A stretch of DNA of 64,000 bases from Candidatus Moraniibacteriota bacterium (GCA_037443825.1 JBBINP010000001.1:1430-65429), one strand, 5' to 3'; counted from the first letter of the stretch, positions 10,982 through 59,995 are shown. Translations and numbers: made by a program. Notes: generated by a model from the letters alone, not told the origin.

Positions 10982-11066
10982 TTCAAAATTGACTATTTGA
11001 TTGCGTCAAGATATTATAAAAAAAGACTTTCGGCGGACGCGACGCCTGCCGATTTTGTGTCCGTAT

Positions 11067-11137
11067 CGGAGCGTGGTGTAATGGCAGCACGAGTGCTTTG
11101 GGAGCATTTAGTCCGAGTTCGACTCTCGGCGCTCCGA
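11067..11137 (+). tRNA. tRNA-Pro (anticodon UGG), CCA not encoded
   Basis: Manually folded. Acceptor CGGAGCG pairs with CGCTCCG (with a G-U); D-stem GTGT/GCAC; anticodon stem AGTGC/GCATT with loop TTTGGGA (UGG, G37); T-arm CCGAG-TTCGACT-CTCGG; discriminator A. The ORF 10943..11167 overlapping it is spurious. Confidence 0.8.
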
Positions 11138-28743: not shown

Positions 28744-31743
28744 TTACTCTCCCCACACGCCCGCTAAAATTTCCTCAATTCGCTTTTGGGCTTCGGATTT
28801 AAGCAGTCGCACGCCTTCCAGCGCCTGCATTTGCTTGTCTAGTTTCTCCACGATTTGGTGTTGGGTTTCGAGGGGTGGAATTAGAAAAAATATGTTTTTT
28901 AGATCTTTTTCATAGATCGCTGCAATATTTGTTGAGGCTTTTTTTATTCCATTTAGCTGATCGGAAACATAATCAGACAAAAAACAATAATTCAAATAAT
29001 CGGGCAATATTTCAGGTTTTGTTTTGATTCTCATCAACATGTGATTAAACAAAACCGGTCTTTCATTATTTTTCTTAAATATTGCCGTTTTTCCTACTAA
29101 TTCAAAGCTGTTACGTGTATTAAACAGAAGGTCATTATCGTCCAGTTTAAATTTGTCTATTTCTTCATTACTAGCTTCAATCGTAACAATACTTGCTTGC
29201 TCAATAAAACCTGACTGAATATTGTTCATTTTGATATATTCAACATCTCCCTTGTCTGTTTCCTCTTTTGTTTTTACTAAGCCAATTTGGGTTGATTCAA
29301 CAATATTTTTAAAAAACTTTTTTTCACCGATAAACGAATGACTACTAATTGAAAAATTATCTTCAATCCTCTCCGCTCCATCAATAATCTGCTTTTGCTT
29401 TTCGATTTTTTCCACGATTTCGTTTTGGACTTCAAGCGGCGGGAGGGGAATTTGTAATGCTAAAATTTCTTCGGTTTTATAGGTTTCGCGACCGGTTGAA
29501 TCTTCAATGCCCAGTTTCGCAAAAGCCGGTTTTAAAAAAATCAACAAATAGTCAGGATTGATTTTTGTATCGTCAATCCTAAACGGAACAAAAGTACCCG
29601 TTGAAACATAATTTTTATCGGAAATCGCAAACGAGCCATTCTGAGTATGCATTTTCCCAATAACAAGATCATCTTTTTGAATAAGAAGTCGTTTTTTGAC
29701 TTTTAGCTCTACCCCCAAACATTCGTTGTTTGTAGAAATAGTATTTGTTTTTGTTGAGATTGTTGGCTCGCAATATATTTTTTCATCTTCAATTTCAATT
29801 TTTCTTTCATCCGACAAATCAATCAAAAATGTGCTCAACGGTTCAAATGTAAATTGCTTTGTTTCTTTCAAAATCTCAAAAAGCTTGGCAAGTTTTTCAT
29901 CTCCTTCTAAAGCATTTTTCTCCAATTTACTCAGAAATTCCCTTGCAATATCCATTTGCAAAGCGTCTTTGGGATTAAAAGAAGCGAGGATTTGTAAAAC
30001 GGTTTTTGGTTCAGCTTTTTGTAATTCTTGATAGCGTTTATCAATTTTTGAGCCGTTTTTTATTTCCACACCTTTTAGTGTTTCTTGCCAATCCTTGATC
30101 TGCTCAATGCTTAAATTACTGCGATAGTTTTGCAAGTTAAAATGGTAGCTATGCGCTTTTTCAATGGCTTTGGCAACTTCGTTGTCAATTTGTCCTTCCA
30201 CGATATTGTCAAACTGCCACAATTTCTCGTCATACATTTCCTTGCTGATTTTTTTGCTTTCCAGTTTTTTATCTAATTGTTCAATAAGTTTTTCTCGTTT
30301 TTTAGCGTTTTTCTCTTTGGTTTTTTCGCTAACCTCTTTTTTTATTCGCTCGGCAATGCGCGGATCAAGGGTTTCGATCTGTTCTTTGGAAATGCAAAAA
30401 CTGTGTTTGGTGTCTTGTGGCTTTTTACTTTGCTTAACTTCTGCAAATAGTTTTAAGAGTTCAGGAATTTGACTGCTTTCAATCGGTTTTCTGTTGGTTC
30501 CCATACTAAAGCCGTCATTTTCTATTTTGTAATACCAAACAAAATCTGTCGGTTCACCTTTTTCAAAATATAAAATCGAAGTTTTGGCTCCTTGCCCGCT
30601 CTTGCTCACAAACACGCCTTGCGGAAGTGAGATAACTGCTCGCAGATTGGTTTCATTCAGAAGTATTTTACGAAGCGCGCAAGCGCTATTTTGCCCCCAA
30701 GTTAAAAAGCCCTCGGAAACAACTACGGCACAACGCCCCTTATCTTTGAGTAAATCAAACATAAGTTTTACGAACAAAATCGTCGTTTCCGATTCCTTGG
30801 AGTATTCTTCCCAAACATTTGGATATGCCGGCTGGTCTCTCTCAGCACCAAAAGGGGGATTGGCAATTACCACGCTTTTGCTTCCGCCGTCTCTGGACGG
30901 ATCGTACATTTTGAGACTGTCGCCTTGATCAATGTTGTGCGGATTAAGTCCGCGAATATACATATTCACCGCCGCCATTTTGCGAATCATTCCCGCATAT
31001 TCAATTCCACCAATTCCGGTGCGATAAAACATATTGGCGATATTTTCGGCAGGAAATTGCCTTGTTTGGCGCGCTTTTTCTATCACATAATCATACGCAT
31101 CAAAAAGAAAACCAGCCGTACCGCAAGCGGGATCAAAAATCGTGTCCGTAAAATCCGGGTCAACCATCTCAACCATCATTTGGCGAATATGGTCTGGCGT
31201 TCGGTAAAGTCCCAAATCTTTTGTTCCGCCGGTTTCAGAAAGAGCGGATTCAATCGCATCGCCGAGTAAATCAGTTTTTAAAATATATTTTTCGTCAATT
31301 TCGTTTACCATGCCGATTACTTCAGCGATCACTCCGCCTTTGACATTATTGGTAAAGTTGGAATTGGCAAAAACTTCTTCCATTAAAACCAACTGATCTT
31401 GCATTTTTTTGGGTAGATTTCCGATGACGACTGTTCGCGCTTTGGAAAGAATGGTGGAGTAAAACGGAAAAATATTTTTATTGAGTTCTGATAAAATTTG
31501 CTCACCGTTCAAAGAAAGCAAATGCGAAAAAAGCAGGCGATAATTTTCACCCGAGAAAAGCTCGCGCAGCGGCTTGAATGATTCGTCTTGTTTGAGTTTG
31601 GCTTCGAAAATGCGAAGTAAACAGAGCTCAATAATATATTCAACACGCATAACCGGCGTGCCGGCAGGACGAAGCTTATTGTGAAGCCTTTTTAGAATAT
31701 TATTTGTTTCGCTATCTGCGTAATGTGTTGTTGATCTGCCCAT
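28744..31743 (-). CDS. Type I restriction-modification HsdM-HsdS fusion (N6-adenine MTase domain + coiled-coil linker + two target-recognition domains)
   Basis: MTase motifs DPACGTAGFL (motif I) and VVIANPPFG (motif IV). A long charged coiled-coil spans about aa 430-640. Two TRD modules each end with the conserved HsdS helices (LPPLEVQNEIVEKIE and IPPLETQHQIVEKLD). Confidence 0.8.
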   Translation of the reverse strand: MGRSTTHYADSETNNILKRLHNKLRPAGTPVMRVEYIIELCLLRIFEAKLKQDESFKPLRELFSGENYRLLFSHLLSLNGEQILSELNKNIFPFYSTILSKARTVVIGNLPKKMQDQLVLMEEVFANSNFTNNVKGGVIAEVIGMVNEIDEKYILKTDLLGDAIESALSETGGTKDLGLYRTPDHIRQMMVEMVDPDFTDTIFDPACGTAGFLFDAYDYVIEKARQTRQFPAENIANMFYRTGIGGIEYAGMIRKMAAVNMYIRGLNPHNIDQGDSLKMYDPSRDGGSKSVVIANPPFGAERDQPAYPNVWEEYSKESETTILFVKLMFDLLKDKGRCAVVVSEGFLTWGQNSACALRKILLNETNLRAVISLPQGVFVSKSGQGAKTSILYFEKGEPTDFVWYYKIENDGFSMGTNRKPIESSQIPELLKLFAEVKQSKKPQDTKHSFCISKEQIETLDPRIAERIKKEVSEKTKEKNAKKREKLIEQLDKKLESKKISKEMYDEKLWQFDNIVEGQIDNEVAKAIEKAHSYHFNLQNYRSNLSIEQIKDWQETLKGVEIKNGSKIDKRYQELQKAEPKTVLQILASFNPKDALQMDIAREFLSKLEKNALEGDEKLAKLFEILKETKQFTFEPLSTFLIDLSDERKIEIEDEKIYCEPTISTKTNTISTNNECLGVELKVKKRLLIQKDDLVIGKMHTQNGSFAISDKNYVSTGTFVPFRIDDTKINPDYLLIFLKPAFAKLGIEDSTGRETYKTEEILALQIPLPPLEVQNEIVEKIEKQKQIIDGAERIEDNFSISSHSFIGEKKFFKNIVESTQIGLVKTKEETDKGDVEYIKMNNIQSGFIEQASIVTIEASNEEIDKFKLDDNDLLFNTRNSFELVGKTAIFKKNNERPVLFNHMLMRIKTKPEILPDYLNYCFLSDYVSDQLNGIKKASTNIAAIYEKDLKNIFFLIPPLETQHQIVEKLDKQMQALEGVRLLKSEAQKRIEEILAGVWGE

Positions 31744-31746
31744 AAC

Positions 31747-34113
31747 TTATACCTTAAATGTTGATTGTAATTCCTCATAAACTTGAGGAAAGCGGTTATC
31801 AAAAACCTGATTTACTTCTTCATAATCCGCGCCAATAATTCTTATAAACACCGGATTATTAAATACTTCTTGCGGTGAAATGCGTTTTTTCTCGGCTATG
31901 TTTGCCGAAACAATATCTTTCATGTCGCGCAAGATTTGAATTTGCTTGTCGTTGAAATTATATGTCTTGATGTATGAATCAAAACCTCTTTCAACTCGTT
32001 CTTTCGGAGTAGGAATTTTTTTGATTTTTAAAGCGTGTAAAAAAAAGTCCCAAATTGATCCCTGTTCAAAATCGTAGGCTTTTTGCAATTGTCCCTCATC
32101 AAGATAAACGTTTGGGTTGCGCGACCAATTTTTAATCTCGTCAATTTCTTGCTCGCTTGGCTCGTAATTTTCATTCGATTTAACTTTCTCTTTAATCTCT
32201 ACGATTTCCGGAGCTTTATCCTTAGTGATCTCTTCTTCAAAAATTTCTTTGGCTTTTTCAATAGGGATATTGTCTATTACTTTTATGCTGTCGCCGTGAA
32301 GGTAAACCCTCTGAATAAGGTGCGCGGGATCTGGATTGTCAATTATACCTGGATTTACCCCACCCCCTCCGCCTCCACTGCCTCCAGTTTGTATTCCTGT
32401 TACAACTTTTTTGTTTTCCTTTACAGTGCCCTTGCCGTTATCTTCCATTTTTTTGCACAGACCAACAAAATCCAAAACTTTAAAACTGAATTTTCCAGTT
32501 TTCGGATCAAGACGAGTTCCACGCCCGAGCATTTGAATATACTTTCCGACTGATTTTGTAAGATTGGCAAAAGCAATATAGCGAACGCAAGGAATATCAA
32601 CGCCGGTACTCATAATATCCACAGAAACAGCGATAAACGGCTTATGATTTTGATCTTTGAACCATTTTTTAAACGTTGCGTTAAGCTCGTCGTTTTCTGA
32701 AATAATAGCTTCTGCATAGCGTGGTGATAATTCATCCTCGCTTGTTTTAAATACTTGATTGATTGCTTTGACGAGTTGAACGGCATGAGCTTGGCTGACG
32801 CCAAACAAAATTACCTTCTCGCCATATTCTGTATTGGCTTTCAGTTCTTCTGCAATTCTTAAGCAATTATCCCAAGCGATAAATTTTCTATTTAGTTGTT
32901 CTAGTTTTATCTTTTTTTCTTGATCCAGCTTAACCAATTCTTCGGTTTTCAAATCAAAGTAGTGATCAAAATTTATGCCAACCTCTCGCGCTGTTTTGGT
33001 AAGTTCTGTTTCAATGGATAAAACTTGATAGGGAGCCAAAAAACCCTCATCAATGCCACGCGTAAGGTCAAATTGATAATCTGGCTCGCCGGTTTCACAG
33101 CCAAAAAGCCGATAAGTATCCAAAATCGCCAAATCTTCATCTGGAATTTCTTTACCTTTTTTAGCAACCGCCGTTCTTGGAGTGGCGGTCAATCCAACAC
33201 GAGGGCACAAGAAATGATCAAAAATCAATTTGCGATTAATATTGATAGATCGGTGACATTCATCAACAATAATCAAATCATAAAAACTGTTTGGAATGTT
33301 TTGATAAATATTCTCTAGCGTGTCAATAACGACGACATGAATTTGTGTGTTTTTGTATTGTTTGTAATTGCCCGAAGTAATACGGATAGCAGAGTATTCC
33401 TTACTAATAAGTGAAAACCCGTCGTTGATAACTTGCTCGGCAAGCATAACTCTATCAACCACAAACAAAACACGCTTTGCCATGTTGTATTCAAATAGTG
33501 CTTTTGTGAAAGCAGCCATTGTTCTTGTCTTTCCAAGACCAGTTGCCATATGAACAAGCATTTTTTGTTTACCCTCTTTGTATTTTTGAATAAGCGCTTG
33601 AATACATTCGGTTTGATAATAGGTTTCTTTACCACAGCTTGGATTTATTCCACCCGCAATACCTTTATCAATCGTGATTACTCGATCAAGATTTATTTTT
33701 CTTGCCTGCTCGATTTTAAGTTGCATTTCTTCAAGTGTCATCAAGCTGTTGACTTGGCGAAATTCTCCCGCTTCAAGCCCTTTCCATTCGGTGTCATAAA
33801 AAAGGGTTCGCTCCGGAGAACAAGCATACAAAAAACGAGGTTTTAAAACTGAAGCGTAAAGTGTACGAAGTTTTGTTAGCGCCTTTTTCTCGTCTTCAAA
33901 TTTATTCTCAAAAATAGCAACAATATTATGATTCAAATCCAATAGCGTAATGTCCGGTTTTACACTTTCTCGACCTTCAAATAGCTTTTGTTGTTCTGGT
34001 GTAAGTGAATATTCTTGTTGGTACAACAAAGTATCGCCGACTTTCCAGCCGAGTTTTTTTAGGTCTTCAATTATTTTCAGATCTGTGTCCGTTGCTTCGT
34101 TAATTCTAGGCAT
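31747..34113 (-). CDS. Type I restriction enzyme R subunit-like (N-terminal PD-(D/E)xK nuclease + SF2 helicase)
   Basis: Nuclease motif KPDITLL...IFENK. Helicase motifs HMATGLGKT (Walker A), IIVDECHRS (Walker B), LTATP and QMLGRGTR. A poly-Gly tract (GGSGGGGGG) is present. Confidence 0.8.
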   Translation of the reverse strand: MPRINEATDTDLKIIEDLKKLGWKVGDTLLYQQEYSLTPEQQKLFEGRESVKPDITLLDLNHNIVAIFENKFEDEKKALTKLRTLYASVLKPRFLYACSPERTLFYDTEWKGLEAGEFRQVNSLMTLEEMQLKIEQARKINLDRVITIDKGIAGGINPSCGKETYYQTECIQALIQKYKEGKQKMLVHMATGLGKTRTMAAFTKALFEYNMAKRVLFVVDRVMLAEQVINDGFSLISKEYSAIRITSGNYKQYKNTQIHVVVIDTLENIYQNIPNSFYDLIIVDECHRSININRKLIFDHFLCPRVGLTATPRTAVAKKGKEIPDEDLAILDTYRLFGCETGEPDYQFDLTRGIDEGFLAPYQVLSIETELTKTAREVGINFDHYFDLKTEELVKLDQEKKIKLEQLNRKFIAWDNCLRIAEELKANTEYGEKVILFGVSQAHAVQLVKAINQVFKTSEDELSPRYAEAIISENDELNATFKKWFKDQNHKPFIAVSVDIMSTGVDIPCVRYIAFANLTKSVGKYIQMLGRGTRLDPKTGKFSFKVLDFVGLCKKMEDNGKGTVKENKKVVTGIQTGGSGGGGGGVNPGIIDNPDPAHLIQRVYLHGDSIKVIDNIPIEKAKEIFEEEITKDKAPEIVEIKEKVKSNENYEPSEQEIDEIKNWSRNPNVYLDEGQLQKAYDFEQGSIWDFFLHALKIKKIPTPKERVERGFDSYIKTYNFNDKQIQILRDMKDIVSANIAEKKRISPQEVFNNPVFIRIIGADYEEVNQVFDNRFPQVYEELQSTFKV

Positions 34114-34115
34114 AA

Positions 34116-34343
34116 TTAAATCTTTATTAAATCATCAATGGTAACCCCTAAACCATCCGCAATTTTCGTTATTGTCTGCAAGGAGGGATTTTTAATAACA
34201 TCACTTTCTATCTTGGCTAAAGTCGTATATGGAATATCCGCCTTTTTAGCTAAAGCGTCTTGAGTAATCTCTTTCTTTTTTCTCCACGCTTTGATTTTTT
34301 CGCCGATGGATTTGTCCTTTTTATTCATTTGCTTTTCTTCCAT
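34116..34343 (-). CDS. XRE-family HTH transcriptional regulator (controller/C-protein candidate of the R-M operon)
   Basis: IKAWRKKKEITQDALAKKADIPYTTLAKIESD...LQTITKIADGLGVTIDDLIK. It sits first in the operon, 2 nt upstream of hsdR. Confidence 0.75.
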   Translation of the reverse strand: MEEKQMNKKDKSIGEKIKAWRKKKEITQDALAKKADIPYTTLAKIESDVIKNPSLQTITKIADGLGVTIDDLIKI

Positions 34344-34361
34344 AAAATGATAGTATTAATA

Positions 34362-34391
34362 TGATGGTGTATGCATATCATCAGTATTATA
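34362..34391 (-). promoter_or_regulatory. operator-like pseudo-palindrome (TGATGGTGTATGCATATCATCA, core TATGCATA) adjacent to a minus-strand TATAAT, upstream of the HTH gene
   Basis: Imperfect 22-bp palindrome at 34362-34383. The -10 TATAAT is the reverse complement of 34386-34391. The arrangement is reminiscent of C-box operators. Confidence 0.35.
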
Positions 34392-34562
34392 CTAACAAAT
34401 ATAATGAAAGCAATCAATTTTTCAACTTTGTTATTAAAAATAAGGGAAGTCCGCTTTTGGCCAGACCCGCAGTAGCGGGGCAAAGATAAAAAATTCCAAT
34501 TTGCGCCTAAAATAGGCTGGCGAGCCCGCGTAGCGGGCGAGCCAATGCTTTCATTTCCCAAC

Positions 34563-34652
34563 TGGCGGAGGGTACAGGATTTGAACCTGTGAGGGGATTT
34601 CTCCCCAACCGCATTTCGAGTGCGGCGCATTAAACCGCTCTGCCAACCCTCC
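34563..34652 (-). tRNA. tRNA-Ser (anticodon CGA), class II with long variable arm, CCA encoded
   Basis: Reverse complement reads GGAGGGT..., with anticodon stem CCGCA/TGCGG, loop CTCGAAA, variable arm TGGGGAGAAATCCCCTCAC, and T-arm AGGTTCAAATCCTGT, ending ACCCTCC-G-CCA. Confidence 0.8.
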
Positions 34653-36910: not shown

Positions 36911-37672
36911 ATGAAATACATAAAAGCAGAAAATAAAGTGTTTTTTTTGGTAATATTAACTTTTTTGTTATTTTTTGGAGTAGGCATCTTTTCTGCTAAC
37001 GGAAGTCAGGGGTCCGGAGGCATTGTGCCCTGCGGACGGTATATCGGCACCGCGGAGGAGCAAAAACCATGCACGCTTTGCCATTTAATAATAGGCATTT
37101 ATCGGATTATTGATTACGGAAGAAAAATTTTGACGTTTGTGGCTATCACGACGCTGGTGATCGGCGGCATAATTTATATTTTGAGCGCCGGCAATCAAAA
37201 TATGATAAATCTGGCCAAAAGCGTGATCTGGAAATCTTTGGCGGGTTTTGCCATTATTTTGGGCGCTTGGGTAATAATCAATTATGCGATGTTTTTGATC
37301 AGCACCAAAACCGATCTTGGCGTGGGGGCGACGAAATGGAATGAATTCAGTTGCAGAACCGATTCCACCACATCCATCGCGGTAGCGCCTCCCAGCAATA
37401 AAAAAGAAGAATGCGGAAAAATAGCGGGAATTAAATCTGCTTGTTTTAAACAGTGCCTAAGTCATACCAATAAATATTCCGCCGAATGTCCATCATCTGG
37501 CGAGGAGTGCTGTCAGTTTCAAAGCGGACCGGGTGATGCGTGCGGACCTGGACTGGGAGGTATTTGTTTTGTTTGCGAAGGAGCTTGTGTTTTTAATGCA
37601 TGTCCTGATCCTTATGGGCGTCTTATTGGGGGTACGGATTGTCCTGACGAGAAAATATGTTGCGGGCTATAG
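36911..37672 (+). CDS. VirB2/TrbC-like pilin candidate with a cysteine-rich (16 Cys) C-terminal domain
   Basis: Signal/TM segment, the motif IVPCGRY...CTLCHL, a second TM segment (ITTLVIGGIIYILSAG) shared with the next gene, then a ~100-aa C-terminus with 16 cysteines ending CCGL. Confidence 0.55.
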   Translation: MKYIKAENKVFFLVILTFLLFFGVGIFSANGSQGSGGIVPCGRYIGTAEEQKPCTLCHLIIGIYRIIDYGRKILTFVAITTLVIGGIIYILSAGNQNMINLAKSVIWKSLAGFAIILGAWVIINYAMFLISTKTDLGVGATKWNEFSCRTDSTTSIAVAPPSNKKEECGKIAGIKSACFKQCLSHTNKYSAECPSSGEECCQFQSGPGDACGPGLGGICFVCEGACVFNACPDPYGRLIGGTDCPDEKICCGL

Positions 37673-37768
37673 TCAAAAAATAGTGTTAAGTGTAATATTA
37701 AATTGATGTGATTTTATAAATTGTGAATAAGACAAAAAAATTGAATAAATAAAGTAAGTAATAAAAAA

Positions 37769-38413
37769 ATGAAAAAAATATTATTTTTTGTTGTCAGCAT
37801 AAGTTTTTTGTTTACATTAAGTGCGAGTGGCACATTTGGAAGCGATCCGCCACCCGGCGGTAATCCACCTGGCGCAACTACTCACGCCGTAAAATTTGAA
37901 AATCCGTTAAAATTTGACACAGTGGAAGATATTCTAACCAGCTTGCTTAACAGTTTGCGCGGGGTGATTGTGGTAATCTCGCTTGTTTTTATTGTTATCG
38001 GGGCGATTTTGTATATTACCTCGGCTGGCAGCGAAGAAAGAATTAAATCAGCCAAAAAGGCGATTACCGCTTCCATGATCGGACTGGCAATCGGGATTGC
38101 GGCGCCCTCATTCCTCAAGGAAATAGCCACTATCTTGGGTTGGACAAGCCAAGTTACCGATCCTAGCGGGCAAAATATTCTTACTATCAAACAAATCGCT
38201 CTCAATACTCTGGAATTTCTTTTGGGCATTGTCGGTATTTTTGCCATCATTATGCTGGTGGTGGGCGGAATTTCTTATTTCGGAGCGGGTTTAAATGAAA
38301 AACAAGCCGAATCTTCCAAAAAAATAATCTGGTTTTCCGTTTTGGGCATCCTGGTTGCCATGGCGGCGCTTGTTATAGTTAAGCAGATAGCCGCGTTTTT
38401 TGGCGTTTCATAA
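37769..38413 (+). CDS. VirB2/TrbC-like pilin candidate (paralog of the upstream gene; signal peptide + 3-4 TM helices)
   Basis: Shares the segment ISLVFIVIGAILYITSAGSEE with the upstream gene; hydrophobic helical hairpins throughout. Confidence 0.5.
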   Translation: MKKILFFVVSISFLFTLSASGTFGSDPPPGGNPPGATTHAVKFENPLKFDTVEDILTSLLNSLRGVIVVISLVFIVIGAILYITSAGSEERIKSAKKAITASMIGLAIGIAAPSFLKEIATILGWTSQVTDPSGQNILTIKQIALNTLEFLLGIVGIFAIIMLVVGGISYFGAGLNEKQAESSKKIIWFSVLGILVAMAALVIVKQIAAFFGVS

Positions 38414-38425
38414 AGCGTAAAATTT

Positions 38426-38902
38426 ATGATATTCGGAGTTCCGCAATTTATTAATATTGAAGACAAAGTGGCCGGCCCCTTGACTGGCAAGCAATTGCTT
38501 TGGATGATCGGCATGGGAGCGGCGCTCTTGGTATTGTGGAACACATTGGAAGACAACGCTTTTTTTGTCGCGGCTATTCCGGTAGTTTTGATTTTTTGCG
38601 CTTTTGCTTTCTATCGTCCGTATGAACAATCAATGGTTGAATTTGTGGGACATTCCGTGATTTTCTTGTTTCAGCCGAAAATTTACATATGGAAGAGAAC
38701 TGGAGAGCCGGAAATTTTGGCAAAAATCCAAAAAACAAAAATATCCTTTTCGGGGGAGGAAAAAAAATACACTTCGGACGATTTCGGATCTTTCGCTGAT
38801 CTTCTGGATTCGGATGGTGGCAGGCGCGGAGGAAAAATCATGAATCTTATCGATGAGCGGGAAAAAAAGAAACATAAAAAGAAATTTCCTTTTTTAATGT
38901 AA
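38426..38902 (+). CDS. PrgI-family / VirB3-like small membrane protein
   Basis: N-terminus ...DKVAGPLTGKQLLWMIGMGAALLV matches the PrgI-family signature (G-LT-RQ) from memory, followed by two TM helices; it sits directly upstream of VirB4. Confidence 0.55.
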   Translation: MIFGVPQFINIEDKVAGPLTGKQLLWMIGMGAALLVLWNTLEDNAFFVAAIPVVLIFCAFAFYRPYEQSMVEFVGHSVIFLFQPKIYIWKRTGEPEILAKIQKTKISFSGEEKKYTSDDFGSFADLLDSDGGRRGGKIMNLIDEREKKKHKKKFPFLM

Positions 38903-38904
38903 TT

Positions 38905-39585
38905 ATGGAAACATTGCATTCCAAAAAAAATATCGGGGGCGCGAGCACCCAAAAATACGTTGATATTGAAGAAATCAAGGATGGCGTTATTATGCTTAAA
39001 AACGGCGCTTTGCGCGCTGTGCTTTTGGTTTCCGCGGTTAATTTTGACCTCAAATCGTCGGAAGAGCAAGACGGGATTATCGGACAATATCAAAATTTTC
39101 TTAACTCCCTTGATTTTCCCTTGCAAATCATTGTCAGTTCCCGCAAACTAAATATTGAGCCGTATTTAAAATTTATTTCAGAGCACGAAAGAAGGCAAAC
39201 CAATGAGCTATTGCGGCTGCAAATATCCGAATATAAAAATTTTGTCCGCAACCTCACGGAAGTTTCCAATATTATGTCAAAATATTTTTACATCACGGTG
39301 CCTTTCGCGCCGGTGGAAAACAAGGAAAAAGGAATTTTCAGCCAATTATCAGGACTTCTTCGTCCGAAACAGGCGATTATTCAGAAACGGGAATTGTTTG
39401 AAACGTATAAAAGCCAGTTATGGCAGCGCGTGGATCATATTGTCGCCAGCCTTTCAGGCATCGGGCTCAAAATTGTTCCGCTCAAGACGGATGAAATTAT
39501 TGAACTTCTTTATAATTCATACAACCCGAGCATTTATAATAACGCGATTATCAGGGATAGTGAAAAAATTGAATTGGTAAAATAA
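38905..39585 (+). CDS. VirB4/TraC-family ATPase, N-terminal domain encoded as a separate ORF
   Basis: 226 aa matching the N-terminal domain that precedes the ATPase core in full-length VirB4. It is separated from the ATPase ORF by a stop plus frame change (TAA at 39583, next ATG at 39593). Confidence 0.55.
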   Translation: METLHSKKNIGGASTQKYVDIEEIKDGVIMLKNGALRAVLLVSAVNFDLKSSEEQDGIIGQYQNFLNSLDFPLQIIVSSRKLNIEPYLKFISEHERRQTNELLRLQISEYKNFVRNLTEVSNIMSKYFYITVPFAPVENKEKGIFSQLSGLLRPKQAIIQKRELFETYKSQLWQRVDHIVASLSGIGLKIVPLKTDEIIELLYNSYNPSIYNNAIIRDSEKIELVK

Positions 39586-39592
39586 AAAAATT

Positions 39593-41401
39593 ATGTTTGG
39601 ATGGCAAAATAAAAACAAGAAGGATGAGGTTTTAGAAGACGAGCGAATTTATCGGCAGGGCTTGGCGACCATAAAAGATCTTATTGCTCCGGCATCGGTG
39701 CGGGTGAATATTGATTATCTGCATGTCGGAGAAACTTTCGTCAAAACTCTTTTTGTTATTGCTTATCCGAGATTTCTTCATACTAACTGGTTTTCCACCA
39801 TTATTAATATGGACAATTCCATGGATATCGCGATGTTTGTGCATCCAATCAACACAAACGATGTTTTGAAGGAACTTCGCAAAAACGCGACAAGAGTGGA
39901 ATCGCAAATTCAGCTGGAAAGCGAAGGAGGAAAAGTTCGCGATCCCATTCTTGAAACGGCGATTCATGACATTGAGGAGTTGCGGGACAAATTGCAGCAA
40001 GGCACGGAAAAATTTTTTCGTTTCGGTTTGTACGTAAGTGTCTACGGGCAAACACTGGAAGAAGCCAGAAAAATCAGCCAGCAAATAGAAGCGATTCTGG
40101 AAGCCCAGCTGGTGTATGTCAAGCCGGCGGTAATGCGGGCGGAGAACGGCTTTTCTTCCACATTGCCACTGGGAAACGATGAATTGGATGTCGCCAACAA
40201 CCTCAATACATCTCCTCTTTCCACTACTTTTCCTTTTGTTTCGGCGGAATTATCATCCAATGATGGAATTCTTTACGGCATCAATCGGCACAACAATTCG
40301 CTGATTATTTTTGATCGGTTTAAAATGGAAAACGCCAATATGGTGATATTCGCTAAATCCGGCGCGGGCAAAAGTTACACTGTCAAGCTTGAAGTTTTTC
40401 GTTCCATGATGCTGGGAACAAATATCATTATCATAGATCCTGAAAATGAATACCATTATTTGTGCGAAAAAGTGGGAGGTACTTTTGTGAAAGTTTCGCT
40501 TAATTCTCATTTTCGCATAAATCCCTTTGATCTTCCCAAAATCAAAGAAGATGATGATCCGGAAGAAGTAATTCGCAACAATATCGCCAACCTAATCGGC
40601 CTTTTGCATATTATGCTGGGAACAGTGACTCCGGAAGAAGATTCTATCCTGGATCATGCCATCAGAGAAACATACAACATCCGCGACATAACAGTCCAGA
40701 GCAATTTTCAATCTTTCACTTCCAACTCTTTTCCGACTATGTCGGATTTGTATGAAGTTCTTTCCAATATGGAGGGAGCGGAATCGCTTGCCATGCGGCT
40801 GGCCAAATACACAGAAGGAATTTTTTCCGGATTTCTCAATCATCCCACCAACGTGAAAGTGGACAATCAAATGGTGGTATTTAACATCCGTGACTTGGAG
40901 GAAGAATTGCGTCCGGTGGCGATGTATATCGTGCTGCATTTCATTTGGAACGAAATGCGTTCGGAGCTTAAAAAAAGAATAGTCGTTGTTGACGAAGCAT
41001 GGGTAATGATGCAATATGAAGACGCGGCTTCTTTCATGTTCGGCATTGCCAAGCGTTGCCGAAAATATTACACCGGACTTACGACCATTACTCAGGACGT
41101 GAATGATTTTATGGGATCAAGATACGGAAAACCGATTGTCACCAATTCTTCCATGCAGCTGCTTTTGCGCCAATCGCCGGCTTCCATTGACATTCTGGTG
41201 GAAACTTTTTACTTGACTGATCAGGAAAAATTCCTGCTTTTGGAAAGCAGCGTCGGTGAAGGCATTTTTTTTGCCGGACTTAAGCATGCGGCCGTCAAGG
41301 TTGTGTCTTCTTACACCGAAGACCAGGTGATCACTTCGGATCCCAAACAGCTTCTGGAAATTGAACAAGCCAAAAAAGAATTTGAAGAGTTGGAAGGATA
41401 A
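39593..41401 (+). CDS. VirB4/TrbE/CagE-family T4SS ATPase, C-terminal ATPase domain
   Basis: Walker A VIFAKSGAGKSYTV, Walker B RIVVVDEAWVMM, and the FVHPINTNDVLKEL region typical of VirB4. Confidence 0.8.
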   Translation: MFGWQNKNKKDEVLEDERIYRQGLATIKDLIAPASVRVNIDYLHVGETFVKTLFVIAYPRFLHTNWFSTIINMDNSMDIAMFVHPINTNDVLKELRKNATRVESQIQLESEGGKVRDPILETAIHDIEELRDKLQQGTEKFFRFGLYVSVYGQTLEEARKISQQIEAILEAQLVYVKPAVMRAENGFSSTLPLGNDELDVANNLNTSPLSTTFPFVSAELSSNDGILYGINRHNNSLIIFDRFKMENANMVIFAKSGAGKSYTVKLEVFRSMMLGTNIIIIDPENEYHYLCEKVGGTFVKVSLNSHFRINPFDLPKIKEDDDPEEVIRNNIANLIGLLHIMLGTVTPEEDSILDHAIRETYNIRDITVQSNFQSFTSNSFPTMSDLYEVLSNMEGAESLAMRLAKYTEGIFSGFLNHPTNVKVDNQMVVFNIRDLEEELRPVAMYIVLHFIWNEMRSELKKRIVVVDEAWVMMQYEDAASFMFGIAKRCRKYYTGLTTITQDVNDFMGSRYGKPIVTNSSMQLLLRQSPASIDILVETFYLTDQEKFLLLESSVGEGIFFAGLKHAAVKVVSSYTEDQVITSDPKQLLEIEQAKKEFEELEG

Positions 41402-41476
41402 AACTGATATTTTCCTAAAGTCAGCCTTTGGGATTTTTCCTGAAGGTTTGCTTTATTTCAAGCAAAAATCATTTTT

Positions 41477-42136
41477 ATGCCAATAAGCGATTACGAAAAA
41501 CGCAAACAGCTTCAAGATGATCGAAGAAGGGAATGGGCGCAGAACAATGTTCCCTATCAGCGCATCATGCGTGGGCGGATAGCGGCTAATGTTGCGCGGA
41601 CGGCTAACAAAGAAGAAAGTTATGCGCAATGGAGAAATTCGCTAAAGGCAGCACAAAATAAGATTGATGAAATACAAAGGGACACATCATCAGTCCGGTC
41701 TGTTTTCAAAGGTAAAAAGGGAACAATGCCATTAAGGGCGGCTAAATTAGGATTTGAATTTAAAAAAAGAATTAAGGAACTAGACACAACACCTTTTAAA
41801 TTTTTATTTATAATAGCCATTTTTTCTGACTTGGGAGATTTTACATGGATCATAGGGTTTAGTCTAAAAGTTATTCTATTCATTGCTCTTTTGGGCCATG
41901 GGGCTTGGAAGAAAAAATTAGGCGCTAGAATCATCTACTGGCTATTAATAGTGCTTGACATAATTCCTTTCCTTGGAGCACTGCCACTAAGCACTATTGC
42001 AGTGTTACTTATTTGGCGGGATGTGAAAAAAGAAATCAAAGAAAATGAGGAAAAAATAAAGAAAATAGAAAAAAATCCTGAAGAATTTTGGGACGCCGAA
42101 TATGACGAAGACGAAGAAATGGACGAAGTGACGTAA
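41477..42136 (+). CDS. small membrane protein (2-3 TM helices, charged N- and C-terminal tails), T4SS-cluster associated
   Basis: Hydrophobic segments FKFLFIIAIF...WIIGFSLKVILFIALLG and IIYWLLIVLDIIPFLGALPLSTIAVLLIW; acidic C-terminus. Confidence 0.5.
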   Translation: MPISDYEKRKQLQDDRRREWAQNNVPYQRIMRGRIAANVARTANKEESYAQWRNSLKAAQNKIDEIQRDTSSVRSVFKGKKGTMPLRAAKLGFEFKKRIKELDTTPFKFLFIIAIFSDLGDFTWIIGFSLKVILFIALLGHGAWKKKLGARIIYWLLIVLDIIPFLGALPLSTIAVLLIWRDVKKEIKENEEKIKKIEKNPEEFWDAEYDEDEEMDEVT

Positions 42137-42205
42137 TTCAATCATCAACTAATGCTTCTTTAGTTTCATAAATTATAATTCTTAAATATTTTAAATCTTT
42201 AATCC

Positions 42206-43732
42206 ATGCCTTCTAAAATATTTTCTGCCGTAACTATCGGCCTTGACAGCGATTTGGTGGAAGTGGAGGTGGATGTTTTGGGTCAGGGACTTCATAATTT
42301 TACGATTGTCGGCCTTCCCGATACGGCCATTAAAGAATCCAGGGAGCGTGTCAGTTCGGCGCTCAAAAACAGCGGTTTTCGTCCGCCTCATCAATGCGGA
42401 CGAATTACCGTAAATTTGGCTCCGGCGGATATTCCCAAAATGGCGCCGATCTATGATTTGCCGATGGCGCTCGGGTTTTTGTTGGCGACGCGCCAGATAG
42501 ATTTTTTTCACGGCGACAAGCTTTTTGTCGGCGAGCTGGCTTTGGACGGACGGATTCGCCCCGTTCAGGGCGTTTTGCCGATCGCGATGTTTGCCGAAAA
42601 AAAAGGAATCGCGGAAATCTACGTTCCTCGCGAAAACTCTTCGGAAGCGAGCATGATGCGGAAAACTAAAGTCATTCCGGCGGAAAATCTGTATTCCTTG
42701 ATCAGTCATTTGACGGGAGAGTCAAAAATTGACGCTTATTCGGGCGAGGATATTAAAAAAATTTTTGAAAAAAACAAACCGCTTTCAGATATGGCGCATG
42801 TCCGCGGACAGGAACACGCCAAAAGATCTTTGGAGATAGCGGCGGCGGGAGGGCACAACGTTATTTTTAGCGGTCCGCCAGGTTCCGGAAAAACTCTTTT
42901 GGCCAAGACTGTGCCTTCTATTTTGCCAAAACTTGATTGCGAAGAAGCTTTGGAAATAACCAAAATATTTTCAGTTTCGGGAAAATTGGCGAAAAATGAG
43001 GCAATTGTCACTGTCCGGCCTTTTCGTTCTCCGCATCACAGCGCGAGTTCGGTGTCGCTTGTCGGGGGCGGGACTTATCCTAAGCCGGGCGAAATATCTC
43101 TGGCGCATCGCGGCGTGTTGTTTTTGGATGAATTTGCTGAATTTCCCCGGAGCGTTCTGGAAAATTTGCGGCAACCGCTGGAAGACGGCGTTATTACGGT
43201 TTCCCGCGCCAAAGGATCTTTGGAGTTTCCGGCCAGGTTTATTTTAATTGCGGCCATGAATCCATGTCCATGCGGCAACGCGACTGATCCGGAAAAAATT
43301 TGCTCTTGCGCTCCGTCGCAAATTATCAGATACCAGCGGAGAATTTCCGGGCCGATTTTGGACAGGATTGATCTTCATGTGGAAGTTCCGCGGTTAAAAT
43401 TTGAAAAAATTGAAGAAGAAACTCCTGGTGAAAAAAGCGCGGATATCAGAAAGAGGGTGGAATCCGCGCGAGCCATCCAAAAGAAACGTTTTCAAAAACT
43501 TCCTATTATGATTAACAGCGAAATGAATTCCCAGCAAATCAGAGAATTTTGCAAACTGGACAATGCCGGAGCGGAACTTCTTCGCAGGGCGGTTTCAACC
43601 ATGCGCTTAAGCGCGCGGGCTTATTATCGCATTATTAAAATTGCTCGCACTATTTCCGATTTGGCAAATGAAGAAAATATCGCGCCGGCGCATATTGCCG
43701 AAGCTATCCAGTACCGTTTTAAAAGCGAATAA
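42206..43732 (+). CDS. comM: ComM/YifB-family Mg-chelatase-like AAA+ ATPase
   Basis: N-terminal ChlI/YifB domain, AAA+ Walker A GPPGSGKTLLAK, and the zinc-finger-like CPCGNATDPEKICSC. Confidence 0.85.
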   Translation: MPSKIFSAVTIGLDSDLVEVEVDVLGQGLHNFTIVGLPDTAIKESRERVSSALKNSGFRPPHQCGRITVNLAPADIPKMAPIYDLPMALGFLLATRQIDFFHGDKLFVGELALDGRIRPVQGVLPIAMFAEKKGIAEIYVPRENSSEASMMRKTKVIPAENLYSLISHLTGESKIDAYSGEDIKKIFEKNKPLSDMAHVRGQEHAKRSLEIAAAGGHNVIFSGPPGSGKTLLAKTVPSILPKLDCEEALEITKIFSVSGKLAKNEAIVTVRPFRSPHHSASSVSLVGGGTYPKPGEISLAHRGVLFLDEFAEFPRSVLENLRQPLEDGVITVSRAKGSLEFPARFILIAAMNPCPCGNATDPEKICSCAPSQIIRYQRRISGPILDRIDLHVEVPRLKFEKIEEETPGEKSADIRKRVESARAIQKKRFQKLPIMINSEMNSQQIREFCKLDNAGAELLRRAVSTMRLSARAYYRIIKIARTISDLANEENIAPAHIAEAIQYRFKSE

Positions 43733-58735: not shown

Positions 58736-58773
58736 GTCAGCGATTTTTAATGATTATGTTTTTTTGGCGCGTG

Positions 58774-59182
58774 TGGAGTTGATGGGAATCGCACCCATGT
58801 CCAAATTATTTTTAAAACGCTTTCTACAAGATTAGTCTGTTTATTGTTTCGGTTTTTCCGAAAGCAGTTGTTTGCCTTGAAACAAACAAAAAAACAAACA
58901 ACTTTCTTTGGGCATTGCTTCGCCTTCCGCCGCCAAAGAACCGCGGTTGGCTATTCTGATAGTTGACACCGGAAATTGTTTATCAGAAATCAACAATCCG
59001 ATGGCCTGGCTGTTAAATTAAGCCAAGGCGGGAGCGAAAGCCGGCGTCATTGCTCGCGCAAAGGCCGCTTTCACTTTTGAGTATAAGTTTGCACTTATAA
59101 TTTTTCGGGAAGTTTGCGACTTTACCGAAATAGTCGGCTTGCGAACGTTTTAAGGAACAATTTGTCGAAACTGAACAACCCC
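58774..59182 (-). ncRNA. ssrA: tmRNA (ssrA), ~409 nt, CCA not encoded
   Basis: Reverse complement starts GGGGUUGUUCAGUUUCGACAAAUUG (compare E. coli GGGGCUGAUUCUGGAUUCGACGGGAUUUG). The acceptor stem GGGGUUG/CAACUCC has a G3-U70 pair. The 3' end is GGAC-AUGGG-UGCGAUU-CCCAU-CAACUCC-A (compare E. coli GGAC-GCGGG-UUCAACU-CCCGC-CAGCUCC-A-CCA). A tag-region-like AAGUCGCAAAC is present. It lies directly downstream of smpB. Confidence 0.8.
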
Positions 59183-59250
59183 GTCTCCGTTTCTGGCTGG
59201 AAATTTCCAGTTTCCAATTTCCGATATCTTTAAATATTGGAAATTGGATT

Positions 59251-59706
59251 CTAAAAACTTTTTAAAACTCTTTCCATTTTTCTTTTGAATTCTTTTTTTG
59301 CGATACTCTGGCGTTTGTCAAATTGCTTCTTGCCCCGTCCTACCGCAAATTCCAGTTTAATCAAGCGTTTTTTAGTATACACACGAAGCGGCACTAGTGT
59401 CAAGCCCCCCACGGCTATTTTTCCGATTAAATGTTTGATTTCCGAACTTTTGAGAAGAATTTTGCGCGGGCGCGTCGGATTGTGGTTGGCAATTTTGCCA
59501 GCCGGCTGATAAGGAGGAATATTGGTATTGATGAGATAAAATTCGCTGTCTTTGCGGGCGATAAAACTGTTTTTCAGGGAAATGTGGCCGGTTTTTATGG
59601 ATTTTACTTCCGGTCCATAAAGCACCAAGCCGGCCTCGTAGCGGTCTAAAATTTCATAATCAAAAGTAGCTTTTTTGTTGACAGCAATAATTTTCATAGT
59701 ATTCAT
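59251..59706 (-). CDS. smpB: SsrA-binding protein
   Basis: MNTMKIIAVNKKATFDYEILDRYEAGLVLYGPEVKSIK... The start was moved to ATG 59706 (or 59697); the ORF track extends 5'. Confidence 0.9.
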   Translation of the reverse strand: MNTMKIIAVNKKATFDYEILDRYEAGLVLYGPEVKSIKTGHISLKNSFIARKDSEFYLINTNIPPYQPAGKIANHNPTRPRKILLKSSEIKHLIGKIAVGGLTLVPLRVYTKKRLIKLEFAVGRGKKQFDKRQSIAKKEFKRKMERVLKSF

Positions 59707-59995
59707 AATAATAATAGCAAAAAATGAAGCTTTTGACGAATATGCCGATAATTTTTCCGCGTTAAAATTTGCGCATAACATAAACTTCCTCGCGACAAGA
59801 TGACAATGTGTTGGGGTCAATTTTTATATTCCTTACGTAACAAGCCACAGGGAATTAGCCCCATATGGAGTAAAAGTTGCTTTATTTTAAAGCATTTGCT
59901 ATTATCTCATCAGAAAATGCGATCTAAAAAGGGCTAGTATTTTTAAAAATTAGAATACATAAATAAGTCAGTTCAAAAAACAGGAGGATTAGACA

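Follow-up and report, generated by a model that had tools for sequence, protein, structure and literature searches.

A probable Patescibacteria-type type IV secretion core with a minimal gene layout on a Moraniibacteriota chromosome

What does a bacterial chromosome build with a VirB4-type ATPase, a VirB3-like protein, and two pilin genes when no relaxase or coupling protein is found nearby? This question is raised by positions 36911-43732 of a 64,000-nucleotide stretch of DNA from Candidatus Moraniibacteriota bacterium (GCA_037443825.1, JBBINP010000001.1; "the window" denotes this whole 64-kb stretch), which a first-pass annotation, made from the sequence alone, had described as seven successive plus-strand genes forming a surface-filament cluster akin to a type IV secretion system (T4SS). 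All seven open reading frames (ORFs) are found there, at the coordinates that had been given. We consider it likely that the locus is a vertically inherited chromosomal T4SS core of the Patescibacteria type, which derives from monoderm MPF-FATA conjugation machinery and is no longer conjugative. Vertical inheritance is indicated because VirB4 is 70-80% identical in 80 species and because the flanks consist of core genes (rpoBC, nusG, L11/L1, ksgA, uvrD, and lgt). The locus is best seen as an ordinary member of the already described Patescibacteria T4SS, with local peculiarities in its minimal layout, a double pilin, a pilin with C-terminal cysteine modules, and an unannotated conserved membrane protein. 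The cluster consists of the following features:

36911-37672, + strand: gene 1, pilin 1, 253 aa
37769-38413, + strand: gene 2, pilin 2, 214 aa
38426-38902, + strand: gene 3, PrgI/VirB3-like protein, 158 aa
38905-39585, + strand: gene 4, TrsD/TraC-like protein, 226 aa
39593-41401, + strand: gene 5, VirB4 ATPase, 602 aa
41413-41448, + strand: terminator-like hairpins with a U-rich tail, directly 3' of VirB4 (consensus scan and folding)
41477-42136, + strand: gene 6, small membrane protein, 219 aa
42206-43732, + strand: gene 7, ComM/YifB AAA+ protein, 508 aa

The first-pass annotation had recognized in these genes a VirB2-VirB3-VirB4 core of the kind found in monoderm and candidate phyla radiation (CPR) bacteria, and this is borne out by the profile matches, with pilin 2 (PF18895), PrgI (PF12666), and VirB4 (NF045971) all exceeding their cutoffs. 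Genes 1 to 6 are co-oriented, and the four genes from pilin 2 to VirB4 are tightly spaced, with gaps of 2-12 bp. The spacer that follows VirB4 (41401-41477) contains, in the consensus scan, an 11-pair stem followed by a T-rich run and folds at -20.4 kcal/mol (z -3.2); these hairpins may end or attenuate transcription at this point. Folding finds no structure in the spacer that separates gene 6 from comM. A promoter scan returned 28 sites versus 20.9 ± 5.5 in shuffled sequence, which is not clearly above expectation, and its output was not used.

PrgI, TrsD, and a VirB4 carried as two genes

Gene 3 matches PrgI (PF12666) with 32.4 bits (cutoff 27), in agreement with its first assignment as a PrgI-family VirB3-like protein, and opens a PrgI-TrsD-VirB4 order that is found in 75 of 81 related species loci. 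Gene 4 matches a TraC-like family (PF26593) and, below threshold, both positions 2-120 of VirB4 profiles (CD1110 family) and TrsD (NF041427); a TrsD-like gene is present in 82 loci. Judged by these profile matches, gene 4 is the N-terminal domain of VirB4 carried as a separate gene, TrsD. Gene 5 corresponds to the C-terminal two-thirds of VirB4: it matches the VirB4-like CD1110 family (NF045971) with 369.7 bits (cutoff 325) over profile positions 178-728 and P-loop_TraG (PF19044) with 96.5 bits, and in the Protein Data Bank (PDB) it retrieves 4AG5, a solved VirB4 C-terminal domain (E 1e-50), and TrwK (E 4e-7). Both Walker motifs, A (GAGKS) and B (VVVDEAW), can be read intact in the translation.

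The two pieces of VirB4 had been noted at the outset as a split; what changes is the meaning of the division, which is no local break and instead reproduces the conserved TrsD and VirB4 pair of pGO1-type and Patescibacteria systems. The best 120 homologs of gene 5 are 73-80% identical to it and nearly all 593-618 aa long, and the 79 loci that hold both genes place trsD and virB4 in all three relative frames (31, 27, and 21 loci), from which it follows that these are two genes, not one gene with a frameshift. A frameshift or pseudogene as the cause of the split is ruled out by the ~600-aa homologs together with the varying frames. Where a record credibly names a lineage, the best 120 homologs and the 80 species loci belong to Moranbacteria or Patescibacteria.

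We scanned ORFs of at least 110 aa across the 64-kb window and, in addition, precomputed family lists that include the next 10 kb (~74 kb in all). As the first-pass annotation had stated, no VirD4, relaxase, VirB6, or VirB8 family is found in these ORFs and lists. Of the components that mark a conjugative MPF-FATA system, relaxase, VirD4, and TcpA are missing from the ~74 kb, and VirB6-like (PrgH/CD415), VirB8-like, and VirB1-like proteins from the window. No mobility genes were detected in the window or in the 10 kb beyond it, where GroEL and type IV pilus genes are encoded. Apart from restriction-modification and defense genes, the window is otherwise core chromosome, with genes for transcription and translation (rpoB/rpoC, nusG, L11, L1, gatB, tmRNA/smpB, and ychF), nucleotide and one-carbon metabolism (SHMT and thymidylate genes), repair and regulation (lexA, uvrD, and phoH), and envelope lipoproteins (lgt and lnt).

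The lack of a relaxase, a type IV coupling protein (T4CP), VirB6, and VirB8, a VirB4 in two ORFs of different frames, and restriction-modification islets nearby are also what a decaying integrated conjugative element might leave behind, with the split and the missing parts as signs of pseudogenization. We hold such a remnant to be extremely improbable, and the conservation data effectively refute it: the two-gene layout is kept in 79 loci with all three frames represented, the best 120 homologs are of ~600 aa with Walker motifs intact here, core-gene synteny is kept, no integrase or repeat boundaries are seen, and the restriction-modification islet is missing from syntenic genomes and so is independent of the cluster.

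Two pilin genes, one of them double

Pilin 2 matches the T4SS_pilin family (PF18895) with 64.3 bits (cutoff 26.6) in two stretches, and its halves are 30% identical to each other (E 1e-10), which makes gene 2 a putative fused double pilin, comprising a Sec-type leader, two pilin domains, four transmembrane (TM) helices, and no cysteines. A comparison with NF045849, the Mbov_0395 pilin-like family, gives 31.9 bits, below the cutoff of 40. Pilin 1 has a Sec-type leader followed by a VirB2-like two-helix pilin core (approximately residues 37-150); its score against PF18895, 19.3 bits, lies below the cutoff of 26.6, and its core matches both halves of pilin 2 by BLASTP (E 1e-7 and 1e-6). The proposed pair of pilin paralogs is thus upheld by a family match above cutoff for pilin 2 and by BLASTP homology for pilin 1, with the correction that the second pilin is itself predicted to be a tandem double. 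The helix motif said to be common to both is also present, in the form YI[LT]SAG (IIYILSAG and ILYITSAG) and not with the exact "IYI" start of IYI(L/T)SAG.

The family of pilin 1 is large, with 3,166 cluster representatives at E ≤ 1e-3 that match mainly residues ~30-155, and in an aligned subset C41, C54, C57, and C148 are invariant; these cysteines could join the two ends of the core, N- and C-terminal, to each other. An AlphaFold2 (AF2) model of pilin 1 shows a helical hairpin (H56-91/H96-131, pLDDT 81-90), with the C-terminal cysteine-rich part at low confidence. Foldseek comparison of this model with the PDB returned generic helical hairpins only (E>1), and the pilin profile matched no pilin among PDB sequences.

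That C-terminal part consists of two cysteine-rich modules, at residues 168-201 and 222-251, each ending in CC (window 37412-37666). Modules of this kind are enriched in pilin ORFs (16/87 vs 7/2,334). They span ~30-40 residues, with six cysteines and a CC end, and occur in one to three copies on pilins of the window and of loci L002, L017, L020, L022-L025, and L029. Most species carry them at the N-terminus of pilin 1 or pilin 2; a position at the C-terminus of pilin 1 is seen only in the window and L029, and in both of these genomes pilin 2 is cysteine-free.

A conserved membrane protein downstream of VirB4

Gene 6 encodes a protein with a charged helical N-terminal part, three to four predicted TM helices, and an acidic tail; the two to three TM segments first assigned to it were too few. 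Profile searches place it in no family, without a meaningful Pfam match or PDB sequence match, and its 219-aa sequence, used in a word-indexed search for homologs, retrieved nothing but itself. A profile built from 65 locus-derived relatives retrieved 17 proteins, all annotated as "hypothetical," and hhalign joins the subfamily of gene 6 to the main family with 98.7% probability (E 2e-16). Near-invariant positions of the family are A114, K117, D118, D121, and P170, and the gene 6 protein carries the conserved motifs A..KD..D and (E/D)...FLPxET. The AF2 model is all-helical (pLDDT 73.5, pTM 0.32) with packing that is not confident, and Foldseek found nothing significant for it in the PDB and thus offers no fold-based assignment.

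Among 78 loci with an ORF at this position, members of the family stand directly 3' of VirB4 in most, in both of the layouts described below. Because the family stays with VirB4 and not with ComM, gene 6 is best read as a T4SS-associated subunit; its sequence makes it a divergent member of a conserved unannotated family and a candidate T4SS component.

Locus layouts in related species

The locus was found in 80 GTDB species representatives, titled Moranbacteria, Paceibacteria, Parcubacteria, or Patescibacteria, or else mislabeled or unlabeled. Many species-representative metagenome-assembled genomes titled "uncultured Bdellovibrionales bacterium" (L009, L010, L012, L015, L030, and others) carry the Moranbacteria-type locus, with VirB4 70-77% identical, and the label of these third-party assemblies is probably wrong.

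Two layouts account for the gene orders compared here. Layout A, that of the window's own sub-lineage (VirB4 at least 73% identical), reads methyltransferase, solute-binding protein, pilin 1, pilin 2, PrgI, TrsD, VirB4, small membrane protein, ComM, G5/DPBB protein, KsgA, and UvrD. In layout B (VirB4 ~70-72% identity), ComM-G5-KsgA lies ~10 kb upstream; PrgI-TrsD-VirB4 is preceded by a TSP3-repeat protein, a 320-aa protein, a 795-aa polytopic membrane protein, and a 451-aa protein, and VirB4 is followed by the small membrane protein, a CAAX-protease-like protein, a 930-aa protein, pilins, and a 385-aa protein. L036 (3010-18466) exemplifies the resulting cluster of 12-14 T4SS genes, which is also seen in L089, L097, L106, and ~50 others.

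The 795-aa protein, which has no Pfam match, is a candidate VirB6 analog by its topology. A metagenome scan for its family gave 80 loci, nearly all beside PrgI-TrsD-VirB4 or pilin arrays, and none among the contigs of the window's sub-lineage. A third arrangement (L127, L128, L132, L144, and L149) has the 795-aa and 451-aa genes and, in place of PrgI-TrsD-VirB4, four or five short pilin genes arrayed directly behind them, ~3-6 kb past the 795-aa gene. Some layout-B pilins are fused at the C-terminus to a lytic transglycosylase domain, SLT (PF01464, E 8e-16 in L063) or, in L043, SLT_3; such fusions lie at L063 16050-17024, L047 15671-16627, L075 15913-16860, and L043 16564-18003. They are in effect VirB2-VirB1 fusions and would put a cell-wall hydrolase on a pilin.

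Within one order, the invariant core is thus the PrgI-TrsD-VirB4 triad with the small membrane protein; pilins, large accessory proteins, and neighbors such as comM are reshuffled around it, and one sub-lineage keeps only a minimal set near virB4. This comparison helps to define the core parts for future structural and genetic study.

Comparison with known systems

The first-pass annotation had regarded systems of this type as barely characterized in reduced-genome bacteria, a view that has been overtaken by a comparative paper and by transposon-sequencing (Tn-seq) essentiality data. In the survey of Quiñonero-Coronel et al. (2025), 2,407 of 3,035 CPR genomes (~80%) carried a VirB4 of the Patescibacteria clade, and 2,272 TrsD homologs, 1,649 VirB3 homologs, and 441 pilin arrays were also found, with TrsD reported to be more abundant in Patescibacteria than any other T4SS component; these systems have TrsD, PrgI, and VirB2-like pilin arrays, lack a relaxase, and lie near ksgA (PMC12102498). 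In Southlakia epibionticum, Wang et al. (2023) showed by Tn-seq that T4SS genes including the pilin array are essential, and they proposed protein export or another non-conjugative role (PMC10633639); its TrsD, PrgI, and VirB6 homologs are listed as essential (PMC12102498). A review from 2025 envisages that exchange with the host takes place through a pilus-like conduit (PMC12857230). The T4SS is among the few gene sets common to nearly all Patescibacteria and is essential in the one species tested, and the present locus alone adds little on what it transports or builds.

The locus shares with the Patescibacteria T4SS its chromosomal location, a VirB4 with a separate TrsD, a PrgI/VirB3 protein, VirB2-like pilin paralogs beside virB4, the absence of a relaxase or coupling protein nearby, the proximity of ksgA and core genes, and nearest homologs that are all from Patescibacteria. 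It departs from the S. epibionticum cluster (SEML1_0006-0019) in having no VirB6-like or VirB1-like gene near virB4, both of which are present and essential there, and in having two pilin genes, one a fused double, where S. epibionticum has an array of six; one pilin here carries C-terminal cysteine-rich modules, and the libraries searched contain no named component that matches the small membrane protein 3' of virB4. The staphylococcal MPF-FATA systems of pGO1 and pSK41 have the same three consecutive genes for a VirB3-like protein, TrsD, and a VirB4 ATPase (TrsC-TrsD-TrsE), but they are plasmid-borne, with a relaxase, a coupling protein, a VirB1 hydrolase, and a VirB8-like protein and without a VirB2-like pilin, the reverse of what is found here. 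As in the integrative and conjugative elements (ICEs) of Mycoplasma, a pilin-like gene accompanies a monoderm VirB4; those genes, however, are carried by mobile ICEs in which VirB4 is a single full-length protein, and all matches to them here fall below the family cutoffs, including those of TrsD and VirB4 to the Mbov_0397 VirB4 family (34 and 292 bits, cutoff 590).

On what is known of VirB3, VirB4, and VirB2, PrgI would hold VirB4 and TrsD at the membrane, and VirB4 would pull mature pilins out of the membrane and polymerize them, so that they form a filament on the cell surface or a conduit across the monoderm envelope. The cysteine-rich C-terminal modules of pilin 1 might then be displayed on the filament surface. 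Saccharibacteria genetics suggests that the machine would serve host-cell contact or exchange in an episymbiotic lifestyle, not plasmid transfer.

Several points weigh against reading the locus as a Patescibacteria-type T4SS core. We know of no Moranbacteria for which the filament, the substrate, or the host has been described. The pilin assignment draws on a single Pfam family, under whose threshold pilin 1 remains, and neither sequence profile nor Foldseek ties the pilins to solved VirB2/TraA structures; the operon structure is deduced solely from gene spacing and hairpins; and VirB4 is provisionally placed in the Patescibacteria clade, by sequence similarity. Lastly, the ~74 kb here lack the VirB6-like channel protein that is essential in S. 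epibionticum, and the machine may be missing parts, obtain them from other loci of the genome, or do no more than build a filament.

The last of these possibilities can be put as a distinct proposal, in which the VirB2-VirB3-TrsD-VirB4 genes form a pilus module for an adhesive fiber with swappable cysteine-rich modules and without translocation. We think this unlikely, although it accords with the distribution of seven accessory genes, including that for the 795-aa protein (25-52 of the distant layout-B loci have them, layout A has none within ±10 kb, and the window has none), and with cysteine modules that are concentrated on pilins and shift position between species. On the other side, the accessory genes may lie elsewhere in the genome, and VirB4 is as conserved here as in the full clusters. 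Bolder, and to us similarly doubtful, is the idea that the T4SS of this sub-lineage has been pared down to a six-gene filament machine in which gene 6 replaces the missing VirB6 and VirB8 and the pilins carry interchangeable disulfide-rich host-recognition modules; if true, VirB4 would here drive a minimal pilus that includes a new core subunit. A Patescibacteria-type T4SS core that is no longer conjugative remains the reading that we prefer.

ComM and the question of DNA uptake

Gene 7 is a full-length YifB/ComM protein (TIGR00368, 620 bits, cutoff 362) with domains PF13541, PF01078, and PF13335. Its adjacency had suggested to the first annotator a role in DNA uptake or transfer, and one may envisage, on the model of Helicobacter pylori ComB or archaeal Ced, a filament or channel that imports or exports DNA, with ComM processing incoming DNA for recombination. 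Consistent with such a machine, comM begins 70 bp 3' of gene 6 and lies directly downstream of VirB4 in 24 of the 73 loci with enough flank, all 24 of layout A; conjugation is unlikely with neither relaxase nor T4CP; VirB4 weakly matches CedB (NF041017, 51.8 bits); and T4SS loci of the ABY1 class are often beside comF, recG, and radA (PMC12102498). ComB and Ced are also T4SS-derived without a relaxase, and both move DNA inward.

We nonetheless judge a DNA-uptake machine very unlikely. The adjacency is absent in 49 of the 73 loci, where the ComM-G5-KsgA block lies ~10 kb upstream or ComM is on the opposite strand, and in both layouts ComM is accompanied by the G5/DPBB gene and ksgA. A stable U-tailed hairpin separates VirB4 from the genes beyond it, and the stop codon of comM directly adjoins the G5 start, which binds ComM to the downstream block. 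In Bacillus, too, a DUF348-G5 cell-wall protein is seen next to ksgA (yabE ... ksgA), which fits a housekeeping block. The CedB match is far under its cutoff of 700, CedD gives 21 bits (cutoff 600), and neither the VirB6-10 homologs of ComB nor the CedA/CedB set of Ced is found here. Transformation of S. epibionticum depends on comEC and type IV pili, and deletion of comEC is viable where the T4SS is essential (PMC12857230); the essentiality of the T4SS therefore does not run through ComEC. Type IV pilus genes, moreover, sit just beyond the window end, and we found no functional or conserved genomic link of the cluster to competence genes. We accordingly judge ComM to be a neighboring housekeeping gene outside the secretion module, and the ComM, G5/DPBB, and ksgA genes to be a separate block that stands beside the probable Patescibacteria-type T4SS core by chance in this sub-lineage.

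The window matches contig CAZEGU010000001.1 of NCBI assembly GCA_964511735.1. The public record of this contig has a 100-N scaffold gap with a duplicated 55-bp overlap exactly at the comM start (window 42206-42260; L001 12614-12823), which in the window is collapsed into continuous sequence. Because the gap lies at the comM start, the T4SS-comM junction spans an assembly join; the join is backed by synteny in 24 other species.

Neighboring genes

Upstream of the T4SS neighborhood, positions 28744-34652 on the minus strand, of low GC (35-40%), hold a type I restriction-modification system, with a 999-aa methylase/specificity fusion and a 788-aa restriction subunit, a small HTH gene, and tRNA-Ser(CGA). 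The corresponding regions of L002 and L003, though syntenic, do not have this segment, and so it looks like an inserted defense islet. A second small defense or mobile islet lies between rpoC and housekeeping genes at 11066-14364, where tRNA-Pro is followed by genes for an EcoRI-like adenine methylase, a Bro-N domain protein, and a GmrSD-N and HNH endonuclease.

Downstream, after groEL, a type IV pilus set (PilB/MshE ATPase, PilC, PilM, PilN, and unannotated genes; L086 13036-21068) starts ~1.5 kb past the window end, ~24 kb from the T4SS cluster. Finally, the minus strand at 58773-59820 carries an ordinary tmRNA gene (tag ANLYSKVKAAFARAMTPAFAPALA) adjoining smpB.

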